A stretch of 32,000 nt of DNA from Nitrososphaeraceae archaeon (GCA_035620895.1 DASPFY010000022.1:37892-69891), one strand, 5' to 3'. Counted from the stretch's first letter, positions 8,265 to 20,853 are shown. Made by a program: numbers and translations. Notes: generated by a model from the sequence alone, not told the origin.

Positions 8265-8837
8265 ATGACTAAAATGGCACAGATGCCGGCTCTAATTCCA
8301 AAAGAAGTAGAAATCCAGAGACTAAAGAAAATCTACATCATGGTTATCATGCTGGGTTCAATCGCAGCATCCGTAGAAGTAGACAACTTTGTTGATGGAT
8401 CTCTTCATCAAACCGCAATTAGAGACAGCGCATTTACACCAGCTCATTGGTGGTTATACAGTCACTTTATAGCCCTACCATTAGGTTGGGGATTTGTGGC
8501 AATGTATGACAGAAGGGTGCCTGTACTGAGAGGACCTGGAAACTCAATGAACACTGGTTTAAAGATAACCATCATAGGCTATCTTGCAACCATGTTTACA
8601 ATTGGTGTAAATGAAATGTGGCACTTTTGGTTTGTGGAAGAAATTTTCGCAGTGCCGAACCACTGGATGTTTAACATGGGAGTAGTAGTAGCTTTCATGG
8701 GTGCTCTTGCATATGTAGTAAGAGTTTATGCACGTCTAGTAGAATTGGGTGCTGAAACTCCTGGAAAGAACCCATACGTGGCTGAGATGTACAAGCTTGC
8801 ACTTGAAGGAAAGCTGTACAGCAGATCAATTCCATAA
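8265..8837 (+). CDS. amoC: Ammonia monooxygenase subunit C (archaeal AmoC), stand-alone copy
   Basis: 190 aa. '...MAQMPALIPKEVEIQRLKK...SAFTPAHWWLYSHF...GVNEMWHFWFVEEIF...PYVAEMYKLALEGKLYSRSIP' matches archaeal AmoC as I remember it, over the full length. The true start may be ATG 8274 (MAQMP...). No amoA, amoB or amoX is nearby. Confidence 0.93.
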   Translation: MTKMAQMPALIPKEVEIQRLKKIYIMVIMLGSIAASVEVDNFVDGSLHQTAIRDSAFTPAHWWLYSHFIALPLGWGFVAMYDRRVPVLRGPGNSMNTGLKITIIGYLATMFTIGVNEMWHFWFVEEIFAVPNHWMFNMGVVVAFMGALAYVVRVYARLVELGAETPGKNPYVAEMYKLALEGKLYSRSIP

Positions 8838-14846: not shown

Positions 14847-14934
14847 GGGCCCGTAGCTCAGCCAGGTAGAGTACCGGACTTTTATCATTTCGGAAGAAAT
14901 CCGGCTGTCTCGGGTTCGAATCCCGACGGGCCCG
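14847..14934 (+). tRNA. tRNA-Lys (anticodon UUU) with a 14-nt canonical intron (14885..14898)
   Basis: GGGCCCG-TA-GCTC-AGCCAGGTA-GAGT-A-CCGGA-CTTTTA[tcatttcggaagaa]A-TCCGG-CTGTC-TCGGG-TTCGAAT-CCCGA-CGGGCCC-G. The intron sits at the 37/38 position, and the mature length is 74 nt without CCA. Confidence 0.88.
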
Positions 14935-16233: not shown

Positions 16234-16478
16234 ATTTGAATGAAAAATAAGTTATTAGAAATGATCTAGAAAATATGTCGTTACTATAAATTATTTCAAA
16301 CATGAAGAAGATGGTTTTTCTAAAATGGTCCCACAATAAGTATAAGACAATTTAGTATCTAATTTTTTGTATATTTTGCAACATTATGTCGAGATATTTC
16401 TTGCCGGAAAGAAAATAAATATTTCTTGAAACGCCCGCATGTATTTAATTAAGAGACATCAGGCTAATGAGTACATTC

Positions 16479-16726
16479 CTATCGATCCCTATCAAACTTT
16501 TCTGGTCCTTCAACAGTATATCCTTATATGAGAGCACCTTTCGGCTTGACATAATCTGGCAAACCGAGAACCCAAGATACCTTTTGGTCCTCAAACGCCC
16601 TACAAAGTATGCACCAATTCCCTCGTTTACTGCAGTTAGTAACATGATCATAGAAGCAAACGTTCCATCTACGATACTATAGAATTCTTTGCCTCGAATA
16701 TATGCCCCAAGTCGAAGGAGATCCAC
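16479..16726 (-). pseudogene. Nitroreductase-family pseudogene (C-terminal ~85 codons; 5'-truncated, frameshifted, internal stop)
   Basis: Frame 1 reads '...FYSIVDGTFASMIMLLTAVNEGIGAYFVGR'. After a +1 shift it continues 'FEDQKVSWVLGLPDYVKPKGALI*GYTVEGPEKFDRDR*', the canonical nitroreductase C-terminus, interrupted by a TAA. The N-terminal half is missing, and the upstream space is occupied by the 101-aa gene ending at 16731. Confidence 0.7.
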
Positions 16727-16730
16727 TATA

Positions 16731-17036
16731 TCACATTCTCATGGTTTCCTTGCTAATCTGTACCCGTATGATTCTTTTTCCCTGATTGTCATCTACAGCG
16801 TCTAATGTCGTTTGCCAGTTGTTGTTAAATGCGTCTCGTAAAATGTCAAGGATTCCATAATAGACTAAATCATTGACTCCAAAAGTAGCTTGGCCGAATC
16901 TGAATCCGAATCTTGTGCCAGGAAAAGTATCAAGGCTAATGATAAAATTAACATCAAAGAAATCGTTAGATGGTCTACGATCCTGTACTAGAATCGAGGT
17001 TATTTTTCCGGTAAATTGTAGCATTTCTATTCCCAT
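16731..17036 (-). CDS. Hypothetical protein (101 aa), last gene of the M64-propeller operon
   Basis: Same strand as the 260-aa gene and 48 nt downstream of it. No recognised motif. Confidence 0.5.
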   Translation of the reverse strand: MGIEMLQFTGKITSILVQDRRPSNDFFDVNFIISLDTFPGTRFGFRFGQATFGVNDLVYYGILDILRDAFNNNWQTTLDAVDDNQGKRIIRVQISKETMRM

Positions 17037-17084
17037 ATTGTCATTATCACCTCCATTTCTGTCAACATTCGATCACATTCACGC

Positions 17085-17867
17085 TCACGGCGTATAATGC
17101 CTAAAAAGTTCATAAATTTCTGTTTGTGATCGCTGTGAGAGACCGGTTATATCTATTCCTTTTAACCGGGACACTTCATGTAGTTTATTTTTATACTGGT
17201 GAGTAAAAGATTTCTCCCCTATTATTTTATTTATGTGGCTCTTAACTTCGTATAACCCAATTTCTACTTTTGGAAGTAGAGAGATAGACAAATCTTTAGC
17301 AGGGATATCAACATCAAATTCATAACTAGGAAGCTCCACAATGAAATGGCCTTCCTGACCGGGTACTCCATAAGGATTGGGAAAAGATCTGTTAACACCA
17401 ACATCCATTATTGACCCTGACGCGATGCGCCTTGTCGATAAAGTTACTTCATAGGCGTATTCACCATCGATTCTATCTTCTATTATGAGTGGTCCGTCGA
17501 GCTTGTGTACATCAATCAATGTCATTTTTCCATCTTCTACATGTAAAGTTAAGCGAAGATACGCTCCACCTTTCTGTACCGAAGACTTCTGATTTATCTC
17601 CTTAAATTCTGCTGGTCTAGGATACTCGGCAGTAGTGCCCTTACGTCCATTTGTATTGTCTCTGCCTGCTTCTCCATCTCTGTTCTCTGGAATAGGACCC
17701 ATTAACTTTTTGTCGCCTATCGCATGACCAAACCTGTACTTGCCAGTTGGCATGCTTACTATTTTTCGTTCAACAGGTACAAAATAATTTGAGGCTTGCA
17801 TAAAAGAACGAATACTTGGATATTCAATAGCAGGAGATACACTACTTTCTTGTTTTAATTCGGGCAT
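17085..17867 (-). CDS. Hypothetical protein (260 aa), coupled to the M64-propeller gene
   Basis: ATG lies 1 nt after the upstream TGA (TGAAATG). The N-terminal third is G/R/N-rich and looks disordered; the C-terminal two thirds are beta-rich. No signal peptide or known motif. Confidence 0.6.
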   Translation of the reverse strand: MPELKQESSVSPAIEYPSIRSFMQASNYFVPVERKIVSMPTGKYRFGHAIGDKKLMGPIPENRDGEAGRDNTNGRKGTTAEYPRPAEFKEINQKSSVQKGGAYLRLTLHVEDGKMTLIDVHKLDGPLIIEDRIDGEYAYEVTLSTRRIASGSIMDVGVNRSFPNPYGVPGQEGHFIVELPSYEFDVDIPAKDLSISLLPKVEIGLYEVKSHINKIIGEKSFTHQYKNKLHEVSRLKGIDITGLSQRSQTEIYELFRHYTP

Positions 17868-17868
17868 T

Positions 17869-19935
17869 TCACCAATTCCTACCGTACTTATAGTTATGAA
17901 TCCATTTATAATAAATTTTAGATAGTATCAGATCACTGGAGGGGTCAGTGCGAATCATGCCCAACCAGTCTTGCTTATGAACAATCAGGTCCCGTTTACC
18001 TGGTAGGCCCTCATAGTCACAGGGCTCAAACATATCATCAAATCCTAAAATCCATTCTCCAATTCTATCCTCCTTCAAAAAAGGAAGTAAAGCATTCCCA
18101 CTTGAGACCATACATCCAAAATATTTATGTGACCAATCTACAAAATTAAAAGCGAAAAGATCGTATTTTCCATCACCATTAACGTCGGAAACATAATAAT
18201 TATCGTTCTTACGCATCTGCCATCGAGAAATATTACCATCATAGCGCTTAGTCATGGAAAGATCACTACCGGAAGATCTCATCATACCAAGATAAGCGAT
18301 GGCCCAGCCCCTTCCGTTGAAAACGAAGAGATCATCTTTACCATCTCCATCAAAGTCTCCTACATAATGTCGATCCTGGGGTTTCATTTGCCAGCTAGGC
18401 ATGTTAGCATCGAACCTCCTTGCCACTGAAAGACTAGTTCCATTAGACCTCACCATACCCAAATAAGGAATGGACCAATCAGTTCCGTTGAAAACGAAGA
18501 GATCATCTTTACCATCTCCATCAAAGTCTCCTACATAATGTCGATCCTGGGGTTTCATTCGCCAGCCAGGTATGTTCCCATCATACCGTTGTACAATGGA
18601 GAGGCTAGAGCCATTTGATTTAATCATAGCAAGATACGGTATGGCCCATTGGTTTCCATTGAATATGAAGAGATCTTTTTTAGCATCACCATCAAAGTCT
18701 CCTACATAGAACTTGTCGGACCTCTGAAATGGCCAACCCGGCATACCATCATCATATCGAACTACTAACCTTAGACCATTGCTGCCGTCATCCATTAATA
18801 GCCCTAATATCTCAATTGCCCAGTCAAGGTTGTTATAAATCAGTACCTCATCCTTACCATCTCCATTGAAATCTCCTACATAGAACTGGTCGTTGGGTTG
18901 AAAATACCACGAACCAGGCACAAATAGCACGGCACTAAAAATCAAATCAAGCTTAGCGCCATCGGACCTATAGATAAGTATAGAGTTACCGTTATGAACT
19001 AACAGATCATCCTTACCATCACCGTTAAAGTCACCTGTGTAACATTTGAGAAACGAATGGCCAGTGTAGGCGTGCATTCTGGTTTTTAGCTGAGTATAGC
19101 ATATAGGACAGTAGGGGGGCCAATTTTCACGCATACGACAATTTATAACAGGACGAAAGACACCCCGGTCATAAGTACTACCTCCTTCAAACAATCCGAC
19201 GTCCTGACTGTCGCTCCAGCCAGGAGGTCTCGTACCTTGGTTATAGCCAGCACAGCTTCCGAGACCAGTAGGTATGGGAGTTGTATTATTAATGAACTTA
19301 TTCCATTTTATGGTAGCTAGGTTAGTGTTAACTGTTGCATTAGAGCGTGAAGGTTCTCCAAAAGTCCAAGTTCTTGATCGACAGTATTCATCCGCAAGAT
19401 CACCGGCTGCATGACCAAACTCATGCGCCATAACATTCCAAGGGCCCCCTAGAGTAACTACCTGGTGTCCATCCCATGCTTTTCCCCCCCAACCTGTCTC
19501 GTTTAGAATAATAACAACTAAATGTCGATTAGGCACCCACGTGTTCAAAACATCCCGGACTCGGCTAAGCGTGTCCGCACTATCATCAATCCAAAAGTGT
19601 ATCCAAGAGCCATTATATATATACCTCAGCGCCGTGTCCTTCATGGTGGTACTTACGATTGTGTCATCTGACGGATCATTAGGAGTGCCGTGTTCGTCAT
19701 ACACCCGTTTACTTACACCAGACTCATTTGAAATGAGGTTAACCCTATAGATATTGAAAGCCTGCATATCTTCATAAAAGTAATCATGCCCGAAAACTCC
19801 ATCCAATAGCAGTTCCTTAACTTTATTGTTGTATGTTGTTTGATCAGCCTCTGCGAAACCGTCTCCAAGGACGGCAATGTTTCGCTTTGTGCCAGGAGGT
19901 CCTGAGTTAAGGATCTGAGTTACGCTGTCAACCAC
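17869..19935 (-). CDS. Peptidase M64 (IgA-peptidase-like zinc metalloprotease) fused to a 7-bladed FG-GAP/VCBS beta-propeller
   Basis: 688 aa. 'KRNIAVLGDGF...' together with 'VMAHEFGHAAGDLADEY' (HExxH plus downstream E) fits the M64 family as I know it. Seven repeats follow, of type 'YVGDF(D/N)GDGKDDLFVFNG'. The start is GTG and overlaps the upstream stop by 1 nt. There is no N-terminal hydrophobic segment. Confidence 0.85.
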   Translation of the reverse strand: MVDSVTQILNSGPPGTKRNIAVLGDGFAEADQTTYNNKVKELLLDGVFGHDYFYEDMQAFNIYRVNLISNESGVSKRVYDEHGTPNDPSDDTIVSTTMKDTALRYIYNGSWIHFWIDDSADTLSRVRDVLNTWVPNRHLVVIILNETGWGGKAWDGHQVVTLGGPWNVMAHEFGHAAGDLADEYCRSRTWTFGEPSRSNATVNTNLATIKWNKFINNTTPIPTGLGSCAGYNQGTRPPGWSDSQDVGLFEGGSTYDRGVFRPVINCRMRENWPPYCPICYTQLKTRMHAYTGHSFLKCYTGDFNGDGKDDLLVHNGNSILIYRSDGAKLDLIFSAVLFVPGSWYFQPNDQFYVGDFNGDGKDEVLIYNNLDWAIEILGLLMDDGSNGLRLVVRYDDGMPGWPFQRSDKFYVGDFDGDAKKDLFIFNGNQWAIPYLAMIKSNGSSLSIVQRYDGNIPGWRMKPQDRHYVGDFDGDGKDDLFVFNGTDWSIPYLGMVRSNGTSLSVARRFDANMPSWQMKPQDRHYVGDFDGDGKDDLFVFNGRGWAIAYLGMMRSSGSDLSMTKRYDGNISRWQMRKNDNYYVSDVNGDGKYDLFAFNFVDWSHKYFGCMVSSGNALLPFLKEDRIGEWILGFDDMFEPCDYEGLPGKRDLIVHKQDWLGMIRTDPSSDLILSKIYYKWIHNYKYGRNW

Positions 19936-20075
19936 TACTTCTTACCAACCAATTGATCTTCTATAAATTGAATCGAACCATCATCTTTTTCTTTCAGTTT
20001 TGGAAACAGAACGTCGCTTATCCCTTTTCCTACTGGCTGATCATAATCCTCTGGATTTGCATTTACTTCTGACAT
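19935..20075 (-). CDS. Small acidic protein (46 aa from ATG 20075), first gene of the operon
   Basis: MSEVNANPEDYDQPVGKGISDVLFPKLKEKDDGSIQFIEDQLVGKK*. Its stop overlaps the GTG of the M64 gene (TAGTG). The track's 65-aa version starts at TTG 20132. Confidence 0.4.
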   Translation of the reverse strand: MSEVNANPEDYDQPVGKGISDVLFPKLKEKDDGSIQFIEDQLVGKK

Positions 20076-20534
20076 AATGATAGTCCTCTTTTCATGAAAA
20101 AGAATTTTATGGGCTGTATCTCGGACAAACAATTAATTTTGTTTACATCTTTCTTGATCTCCCGTTTTATTCTTTTATTTTTACCATTCTTAAATTGATT
20201 TTTCACTACATTTTTTTAAATATTACAGTTTATATGCATTTAGTACTGATCAATAACTGATCATACAATAAGCAATGTTTAATATCCACTTCCTTTCGAA
20301 CGAAGGAAATGAAAATCGTTACTTCATGCAGAAAAGGAGTTCTCTAAGTATGGTAATGCGAGTAGATAATATCAAGTGATCGAATATTCACAATTTGCGG
20401 TTGATAAGTAACCACCGATTATTCTTCTATTACAGTTCCTACCGGATGAAAATTTCCGACTGTTGGGGGGACCTATTTCCTGGACTGTGGCAACGGTACT
20501 GAGTTTCGACTAAATATCAGCCATATCTCCTCAT

Positions 20535-20618: not shown

Positions 20619-20662
20619 AACACTGTAGTGGTAACGCTAAAACACTGTAGTGGTAACGCTAA
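20619..20662. repeat. Perfect 22-bp tandem duplication (aacactgtagtggtaacgctaa x2)
   Basis: 20619..20640 equals 20641..20662 exactly. It lies in the 720-bp divergent intergenic region. Confidence 0.9.
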
Positions 20663-20853
20663 ACAAATTTAAAATCCTTCAATACCTTTGTATATAATAG
20701 TCACAATTGAAACTGCTTTTTTATTTACTTATTTACTCTACAGTACCAATATCTTACAATATAAGAAAATAAGTATAAACGTGATACAGTTATGATGTTT
20801 GAGACTGTATTGTATAAGGATACATTATTATTTAATGATCACTATCACGTTCT

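Follow-up and report, generated by a model that had tools for sequence, protein, structure and literature searches.

Organization of the Locus

The subject of this analysis is a group of tightly packed genes on the minus strand of a 32,000-nucleotide (nt) stretch of DNA from a Nitrososphaeraceae archaeon (GCA_035620895.1 DASPFY010000022.1:37892-69891), hereafter called the window. The window is chromosomal DNA of an ammonia-oxidising soil archaeon, and genes for PolB, TatC, thymidylate kinase and an AmoC-like protein lie near the group. An initial annotation, made from the sequence alone, had described a four-gene machine in which a protease is accompanied by three unknown partners. We find that the conserved unit is smaller: it is an undescribed two-gene protease module formed by gene A (17869-19935), which encodes a 688-amino-acid (aa) M64 zinc metallopeptidase joined to a seven-bladed FG-GAP propeller, and gene B (17085-17867), which encodes a 260-aa partner. 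The three unknown partners reduce to one obligate partner and one lineage-specific accessory, the 101-aa product of gene C (16731-17036).

The layout itself had been described exactly, as the open reading frame (ORF) listing and the junction sequences return the same four minus-strand ORFs. Upstream of gene A, an acidic ORF of 46 aa (19935-20075, ATG at 20075-20073) can be extended to a 65-aa ORF that starts with TTG and ends at 20132; its stop codon overlaps the GTG start of gene A in the sequence TAGTG. Only 1 nt separates the stop codon of gene A from the start of gene B (TGAAATG), and gene B is translationally coupled to gene A. Genes B and C are 48 nt apart.

None of the four products has a signal peptide. 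Within the first 50 residues, the highest Kyte-Doolittle mean over 15 residues is at most 1.1 in all of them; the value is 2.1 (window of 19 residues, first 90 residues) for the neighbouring secreted FG-GAP protein of 698 aa, whose N-terminus contains a hydrophobic segment. A longer N-terminus is impossible for gene A because an in-frame TAA lies three codons upstream of its GTG. The assigned start is further backed by 120 homologues, the majority of which begin with M[PAV]DS[VM]TQIL; most of them are 682-698 aa long, so that a signal peptide would not fit. The gene A family as a whole is likewise signal-less, since its 121 members show starts of this kind or short extensions only. The initial annotation was thus right in finding no hydrophobic N-terminus on any product, and an upstream start that would provide the 688-aa protein with a signal peptide is excluded.

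The Protease and Propeller Domains of Gene A

The Pfam profile Peptidase_M64 (PF09471) matches residues 8-224 of the gene A product (E 1.1e-27, 97.5 bits against a cut-off of 26), and the FG-GAP profiles PF01839 and PF13517 (FG-GAP_3) match it with E values of 2e-18 and 3e-18, respectively. Matches to NCBIfam are all far under their cut-offs. The catalytic domain occupies aa 8-292 (19060-19914) according to Pfam and to phmmer searches of the PDB, in which aa 18-292 align with residues 159-408 of the Bacteroides enzyme BF3526 (4DF9/9QDI; E 1.3e-22) and a match to 3P1V has E 2e-19. The zinc motif HEFGHAAGDLADEY is found at aa 171-184 (19384-19425). It contains the M64 catalytic pattern HEXXHXXXGXXD in the form HEFGHAAGDLAD: the Gly of the pattern, at position 179, is Asp in the window protein, G178 is kept, and most relatives have HEFGHGTGGLAD. 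Residues H171, E172, H175 and D182 are invariant in an alignment of 14 cross-phylum sequences (alignment A2), and five cysteines (185, 228, 266, 276 and 279) are invariant in 121/121 sequences. Three of the latter, C266, C276 and C279, align with the structural-zinc cysteines (...CRM...CPVC) of solved M64 domains. On profile score, zinc motif and structural cysteines, the product of gene A is a true member of the M64 family, and its catalytic motif reads as intact.

Another pair of cysteines varies in concert. Positions 114 and 152 (19594-19596 and 19480-19482) are both Cys in 116 of the 121 sequences, both Cys are lost in four, including the window protein (F and K), and a single sequence is mixed. 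The pattern suggests a disulfide or a shared metal site that has been dispensed with in the lineage of the window.

The rest of the protein, aa 296-688 (17872-19050), is made of seven FG-GAP blades with DxDxDG-type loops, located by regular expression and by Pfam at residues 299, 351, 409, 467, 524, 580 and 636. The last blade is degenerate. The combination of an M64 core with seven blades is therefore as initially described. The C-terminus ...WIHNY.YGRNW is kept in the 121 sequences. A 171-nt tandem repeat detected by TRF (18283-18708, minus strand; 2.5 copies, 80% matches) encodes blades 3-5 and is the likely substrate for shorter variants, which lack exactly one blade (57 aa), measure about 630 aa and are found in several assemblies. 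Examples are a 631-aa version in the same-species contig L020 (173-2068) and the version at L007 4096-5994, to be compared with L006 3925-5994. Such variants may be caused by collapse of the repeat during short-read assembly or reflect real variation in blade number, giving six-bladed proteins.

Homologues of gene A are numerous, with about 1972 matches among 8000 scored candidates, and span archaea and at least five bacterial phyla. Databases label them either "M64 family metallopeptidase" or "VCBS repeat protein". The 120 closest homologues make a subfamily 60-82% identical, with members in soil archaea, cyanobacteria, Bacteroidota and Actinomycetota. Identity to members from Microcoleus, Zobellia, Spirosoma, Casimicrobiaceae, Anaerolineae, Acidimicrobiia and Thermoleophilia is 62-74%, and the columns of the 14 cross-phylum sequences have a mean identity of 79% between the first residue and the C-terminal ...WIHNYRYGRNW. 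Plasmid and phage collections contained no full-length member, only distant M64 catalytic domains (~27% identity).

The Partner Encoded by Gene B

Neither the 260-aa product of gene B nor the 101-aa product of gene C matches any family in Pfam, NCBIfam, PADLOC or PHROGs, in agreement with their initial description as unknown proteins. The gene B product is 100% identical to a protein from a Nitrososphaeraceae metagenome-assembled genome. Two regions are distinguished in its AlphaFold2 model. The first, aa 1-94 (17586-17867), is variable and predicted to be disordered, with predicted local distance difference test (pLDDT) values below 50; we refer to it as the tail. The second, aa 98-260 (17088-17576), is a predicted β-sandwich accompanied by short helices, with block-mean pLDDT of 69-93, mostly 83 or above.

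Alignments of 17-21 partners reveal three motifs ending in Met within the otherwise variable tail, namely P-V-I-E-N-P-x-L-x-x-M, R-I-x-G-K-I-L-R-M and G-x-K-x-M-x-P, followed by an acidic motif, E-Y-x-x-Q-E. Residues R105, G125, Y139, E140, G151, R160, P163, P165 and H174 are invariant. In one sublineage, the tail and the β-sandwich are encoded by separate, overlapping ORFs of ~100 and ~162 aa (L008 3589-4418, L034 3705-4486, L035 3143-3945 and L036 1104-1906). The tail ORF begins there within the last codons of the M64 gene, and the Met-ended motifs are kept. Hence, tail and β-sandwich are two separable modules.

A comparison of the partner model with 350,542 PDB chains using Foldseek placed 3P1V, 4DF9 and 9QDI in the top nine positions (E 0.017, probability 0.97), followed by C2 domains. 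All three entries are Bacteroides M64 peptidases that contain the N-terminal domain (NTD) of that enzyme type.

A second, diverged copy of the partner β-sandwich (28% identity) was observed in Zobellia laminariae (L001 8896-9609), after the first partner gene. It carries an N-terminal hydrophobic helix instead of the disordered tail.

The A-B Pair as a Conserved Unit

About 20 loci were inspected in searches carried out from both directions, and adjacency was judged where contig extent allowed. In every locus examined, the M64-FG-GAP gene is immediately followed by a partner homologue, with a gap of -7 to +22 nt. These downstream genes encode proteins of 244-263 aa that belong to no Pfam family and were recognised as homologues of the 260-aa protein of the window by a hidden Markov model (HMM). 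The loci come from Zobellia, Microcoleus, Spirosoma, Thermoleophilia and other Actinomycetota, Thaumarchaeota TA_15 and metagenome contigs, and the adjacency is seen in Nitrososphaeria, Bacteroidota, Cyanobacteria and Actinomycetota. Scanning genome contigs with gene A provided at least 6 useful loci. The reverse search, with the partner against metagenome contigs, provided seven, and an M64-FG-GAP gene was found directly upstream in 6/6 that had upstream DNA. A word-indexed profile search for further partners yielded four more proteins.

The genes beyond the pair are wholly different from genome to genome. Since adjacency is universal and the flanks are unrelated, the A-B pair is the unit. 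A conserved neighbourhood, as contemplated in the initial annotation, is thus found for the 688/260 pair in all loci examined, and the 46/688/260/101 quartet is not conserved. Among the varying neighbours, a gene for an 802-aa protein kinase with a LanC-like region, of the class III/IV lanthipeptide-synthetase type, was observed in one Nitrososphaeria-like lineage (L006 713-3121 and L007 883-3291), ~0.8 kb upstream of the module. Patatin and CYTH genes lie downstream of the module in L007.

Identities of 62-74% across domains of life argue for horizontal spread of the pair, and on these sequence grounds the module would be mobile between archaea and bacteria. Such mobility could evoke a defence function, in which the propeller would sense foreign or damaged protein and free the activity of the protease as an anti-phage or stress-triggered abortive response. 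We consider this highly improbable. Sporadic distribution consistent with horizontal transfer, very high conservation, varying neighbourhoods and the patatin and CYTH genes of L007 are features that it would accommodate. However, PADLOC-DB v2 matches none of the four proteins at E values up to 0.1, PHROGs matches only an FG-GAP stretch of generic type, the genes nearby have ordinary metabolic or regulatory roles and do not form defence islands, and no members are present in plasmid or phage collections.

Gene C and the Cholera-Toxin-B-Like Family

The AlphaFold2 model of gene C (pLDDT 84) has the topology β-β-β-long α-β-β and corresponds to an OB fold of the type found in cholera toxin's B subunit (CTB). 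With Foldseek, it resembles the B subunits of LT-IIb, CTB, EcxB, PltB, ArtB and pertussis toxin, with template modelling (TM) scores of 0.64-0.70 and probability 1.0; 4L63 and 4L6T (Ecx) are among the matches. Sequence identity is 8-17%, so that the similarity is at the fold level only.

A gene C homologue follows the partner gene only in same-species contigs and in L006/L007 (about 50% identity). An exhaustive HMMER search found 39 representative relatives. Most of them stand alone as proteins of 120-160 aa and have signal peptides. In others, the domain forms the C-terminal end of a BNR/sortilin or Kelch propeller protein, and in one (P0166) it is fused to a signal-less M64 catalytic domain. 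A further arrangement is found in L037, where a TIR domain, a transmembrane helix and a linker precede the gene C-family domain. There (L037/L038 3993-5417), a 329-aa TIR protein with a Pro/Thr/Glu-rich linker is followed 19 nt downstream by a secreted 138-aa paralogue; from its domain order, the 329-aa protein resembles a TIR receptor that spans the membrane and has a toxin-B-like ectodomain.

The M64 part of P0166 belongs to another signal-less subfamily, with the N-terminus M.T.DG.V.G.TKIVD, whose members are fused either to a CTB-like domain, as in P0166, or to repeats. The latter occurs on the megaplasmid of Ralstonia pseudosolanacearum (L031 2971-5421), where M64 is joined to a long array of ~85-aa repeats. 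No partner homologue was found near these members (P0166 and L031). Judging from these distributions, gene C is a lineage-specific accessory and not part of the universal module, and one fusion lends support to its link with M64.

The fold of gene C raises the possibility that the products of the locus make an exported complex similar to AB5 toxins. The protease, with or without the partner, would be the A effector and gene C the pentameric, glycan-binding B component, leaving the cell by an unconventional route or by lysis. The resemblance of the model to known B subunits agrees with this view, as do the extracytoplasmic habits of the gene C family (signal-peptide proteins for the most part, or C-terminal extracytoplasmic domains on M64, TIR-transmembrane, BNR and Kelch proteins). 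In addition, a metalloprotease gene immediately followed by a B-subunit gene has a precedent in EcxAB (PMC11610972), and calcium-type FG-GAP loops and the co-varying Cys114/Cys152 are typical of extracellular proteins. Yet the window proteins all lack signal peptides, the likeness to B subunits does not go beyond the fold, and gene C is missing from most M64-FG-GAP loci and therefore cannot explain the conserved module. We regard an AB5-like complex as very unlikely.

A feature of the gene C C-terminus recalls the partner tail. Gene C ends in ..SKETMRM (16731-16751), and signal-less, M64-linked members of its family (P0144, P0150 and L006 6761-7105) end in K-E-x-M-x-M-COOH, an extension absent from the signal-peptide members of the CTB-like family. 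Comparison of these sequences suggests that the Met-ended motifs of the partner tail and the K-E-x-M-x-M C-termini may be a shared recognition element.

The same motifs admit another explanation, namely that the partner is a dedicated substrate whose tail would be cut at the Met-ended motifs (M|P, M-x-P), either releasing peptides or activating the β-sandwich. Three regularly spaced motifs, often followed by Pro in a tail that is otherwise variable and disordered, are what such a substrate might show. Characterised M64 enzymes cut beside proline, and BF3526 binds the peptide S-T|P-P; moreover, the M64-linked subgroup of the 101-aa family has a similar end, and a LanC-like kinase gene lies upstream in L006/L007. 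On the other hand, the residue that follows Met varies (P, A, D, E, G, N), so that no uniform cleavage site is evident, and the best-conserved region of the partner is its folded domain, not the tail. Enzymes of the type that modify ribosomally synthesised and post-translationally modified peptides are not consistently found near the module, and the lanthipeptide-like neighbour occurs in one lineage only. A substrate role for the partner thus seems quite unlikely.

A Proposed Two-Subunit Model

A tentative interpretation, which we regard as a serious possibility though short of probable, is that gene B supplies in trans a β-sandwich that gates the active site, so that A and B would make a two-subunit peptidase. 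Its starting point is the lack in gene A of the N-terminal β-sandwich (PF16217) of CL-I enzymes: the start of the gene is fixed by the upstream stop codon and by homologue N-termini, and, as gene A aligns only with residues 159-408 of 4DF9, the NTD of the latter (residues 21-145) has no counterpart in A. In BF3526, the NTD is reported to lie alongside the active site as a barrier that restricts substrate access, and the catalytic domain alone, without NTD, failed to express (PMC12402451). The model also draws support from the adjacency of A and B, the top Foldseek ranking of NTD-containing M64 entries for the partner, the separability of tail and β-sandwich, the invariant catalytic residues and cysteines of A, and the fusion of a gene C-family domain to M64 in P0166.

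We infer that the partner binds A as a second subunit and places its β-sandwich over the active-site cleft, performing in trans the role that the NTD has in cis in BF3526. The β-sandwich may also be required for folding of the catalytic domain, and the tail motifs might find docking sites on the propeller or within the cleft. Such a complex would act as a gated peptidase directed at proline, in which the propeller selects the ligand or substrate. In the archaeal lineage of the window, gene C would probably be an oligomerising or ligand-binding accessory. As for the place of action, calcium-type FG-GAP loops, the CTB-like fold, whose relatives are mostly exported, and the co-varying Cys114/Cys152 point to an extracytoplasmic location; the lack of signal peptides in the entire M64-FG-GAP family points the other way.

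Several observations weigh against the partner being a gate. The fold match is weak (E 0.017, query TM score (TMq) 0.26, root-mean-square deviation of about 8 Å), and Foldseek does not report the aligned residues of 3P1V and 4DF9, so that assignment of the match to the NTD is our deduction. PF16217 matches none of 9 partners in a Pfam search at E values up to 10, and alignment of the partner with three canonical M64 proteins (L017-L019) using hhalign gave a non-significant E of 0.32. No partner homologue was found near M64 subfamilies of Ralstonia, Streptomyces and Sodalis that lack the NTD (PF16217), so that M64 enzymes do not generally need an NTD provided in trans. Across homologues, the charge of the tail does not consistently complement that of the acidic propeller. 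Finally, B changes at a far higher rate than A: in the same pairs of genomes, identities are 62-74% for A and 26-55% for B, an asymmetry that would equally fit an inhibitor, an antitoxin or a substrate.

Identification of the partner as an M64 NTD by sequence was rejected: besides Pfam and hhalign, a profile search of the PDB with the partner was negative, with no match to the M64 NTD.

The difference in evolutionary rate leads to consider a latency or immunity pair, in which the partner would be a dedicated inhibitor, similar to an antitoxin or a prodomain, that blocks the zinc site until a trigger such as tail degradation. Invariant His174, Glu140 or Asp155 could be the zinc-blocking residue. 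A self-contained cassette with unrelated flanks in every genome would suit such a pair, as would rapid evolution, a disordered tail and invariant polar residues in the partner; furthermore, a protease without an export signal would otherwise be active in the cytoplasm. This alternative seems, however, unlikely, as the partner matches neither PADLOC nor any known inhibitor family, the cassette is not found in plasmid or phage collections, and the enzyme-first order and the sizes are atypical for toxin-antitoxin pairs. It also overlaps mechanistically with the gate model, and the two are inseparable by sequence alone.

If the partner is indeed a gate acting in trans, the module would represent the BF3526 architecture split by nature into two chains, and would lend itself to studies of the control of M64 specificity, as cultured hosts such as Zobellia laminariae, Spirosoma flavum and Microcoleus exist. 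The split-domain hypothesis is testable. A broader and more doubtful extension is that the module represents a widespread class of signal-less, multi-subunit M64 proteases, hitherto unrecognised, with a regulatory β-sandwich that has split off and evolves fast, divided again in some lineages into a tail peptide and a domain, and with Met-ended motifs, found in the partner tail and at the C-terminus of gene C, recognised by the propeller or the active site. Such a class would be a self-contained device for regulated proteolysis or peptide processing, exchanged between archaea and bacteria.

M64 peptidases have so far been studied only as secreted, IgA-related enzymes of gut bacteria, and no paper in the library that we searched links M64 to FG-GAP or to Nitrososphaera. 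Of interest here is a signal-less, highly conserved and widely transferred protease-propeller with an obligate, fast-evolving partner. In turn, the presence of a CTB-like family on proteases, TIR domains and propellers of environmental microbes indicates that the fold of AB5 B subunits reaches beyond pathogens.

Other Features of the Window

The 46-aa ORF, originally counted as a gene of the operon, was rejected as a component of the system. It has no homologue in any related locus according to blastp and tblastn, and its status as a gene is therefore unsupported. It matches nothing in Pfam, NCBIfam, PADLOC or PHROGs, and the same-species contig L020 is the only one in which it is called upstream.

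The location of the operon on a tRNA-Lys-flanked island was an overstatement: the only tRNA of the window (14847-14934) is separated from the operon by 1.8 kb that contain a GNAT gene and a 93-aa ORF. It was detected by ARAGORN and Rfam (58.9 bits) as a tRNA-Lys(UUU) interrupted after position 37 by an intron of 14 nt, with the anticodon call of ARAGORN undetermined. The intervening 93-aa ORF (16445-16726) has a GTG start 4 nt after gene C, matches no family and is also called in same-species contigs L020/L021; it may be a gene remnant.

Foreign origin had been suggested on the grounds of composition. GC content is 0.41-0.44 over the two FG-GAP genes, compared with about 0.36, and GC content at third codon positions (GC3) is slightly raised in gene A (0.389; background about 0.30) and normal in gene B (0.295). 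These values are weak and not decisive, and composition was discarded as an argument; the part of the claim that stands is horizontal spread, supported by the cross-domain identities given above.

A 720-nt AT-rich intergenic region separates the operon from the divergent secreted FG-GAP gene. It contains a direct tandem repeat of ~22 nt (gtttagcgttaccactacagtg, two copies, 20621-20664) that may be a regulator-binding site. Elsewhere in the window, the match of a 190-aa ORF (8265-8837) to AmoC is confined to the C-terminal two-thirds of the latter (profile positions 85-243 of 245). The ORF represents either an amoC copy, stand-alone or truncated, or one with a mis-called start.

Comparison with Known Systems

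The closest characterised relatives of gene A are the Bacteroides M64 enzymes BF3526 (4DF9/9QDI) and BACOVA_00663 (3P1V), which belong to cluster CL-I (PMC12402451). The catalytic domain is homologous (E 1e-22), and the HEXXH...D zinc site and the C...CPxC structural-zinc cysteines are shared. In both, the enzyme is also accompanied by a β-sandwich, which in the module is the predicted domain of the partner, and these are the entries that best match the partner's fold. Here, however, the β-sandwich is a separate polypeptide without detectable sequence similarity to the NTD and bears a disordered tail with motifs. Further differences are the C-terminal seven-bladed propeller of gene A, its lack of a signal peptide or lipoprotein signal, and the presence of archaea among the hosts.

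The founding member of M64, the IgA protease ThomasA of Thomasclavelia ramosa, shares the M64 fold and the possession of extra β-rich domains, and proline-directed cleavage is known chemistry of the family (PMC12402451). Unlike the module, ThomasA is secreted and sortase-anchored; this gut enzyme of 137 kDa contains DUF6273 and β-sandwich domains, and it has neither a propeller nor a partner gene. For a soil archaeon, IgA is an implausible substrate. In domain content, gene A is thus neither of the BF3526 type, as it has no NTD in cis, nor of the secreted IgA-protease type, as it has no signal peptide.

The AB5 toxins EcxAB and CfxAB resemble the archaeal locus in that the gene for a zinc metalloprotease shares an operon with one for a small CTB-fold protein (PMC11610972). 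Ecx A is, however, of the metzincin type and gene A is M64; both Ecx subunits are Sec-exported, and gene C of the window lacks a signal peptide; and Ecx B is more than 70% similar to CTB, while gene C resembles it at the fold level only. Besides, the 260-aa partner is interposed between the "A" and "B" genes, and the B-like gene is missing from most loci.

FG-GAP/VCBS proteins with integrin-α-type propellers, such as the 698-aa neighbour, have seven FG-GAP repeats with DxDxDG loops, as gene A does. They are typically exported, whereas the M64-FG-GAP family is uniformly signal-less and fused to a protease.

Lastly, some protease genes are co-transcribed with a gene for a small cognate protein that controls protease activity or folding. 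In contrast with proteases that have a separate cognate inhibitor, the partner described here bears no sequence or fold relation to such inhibitors or foldases, and may instead resemble a domain of the enzyme family itself.

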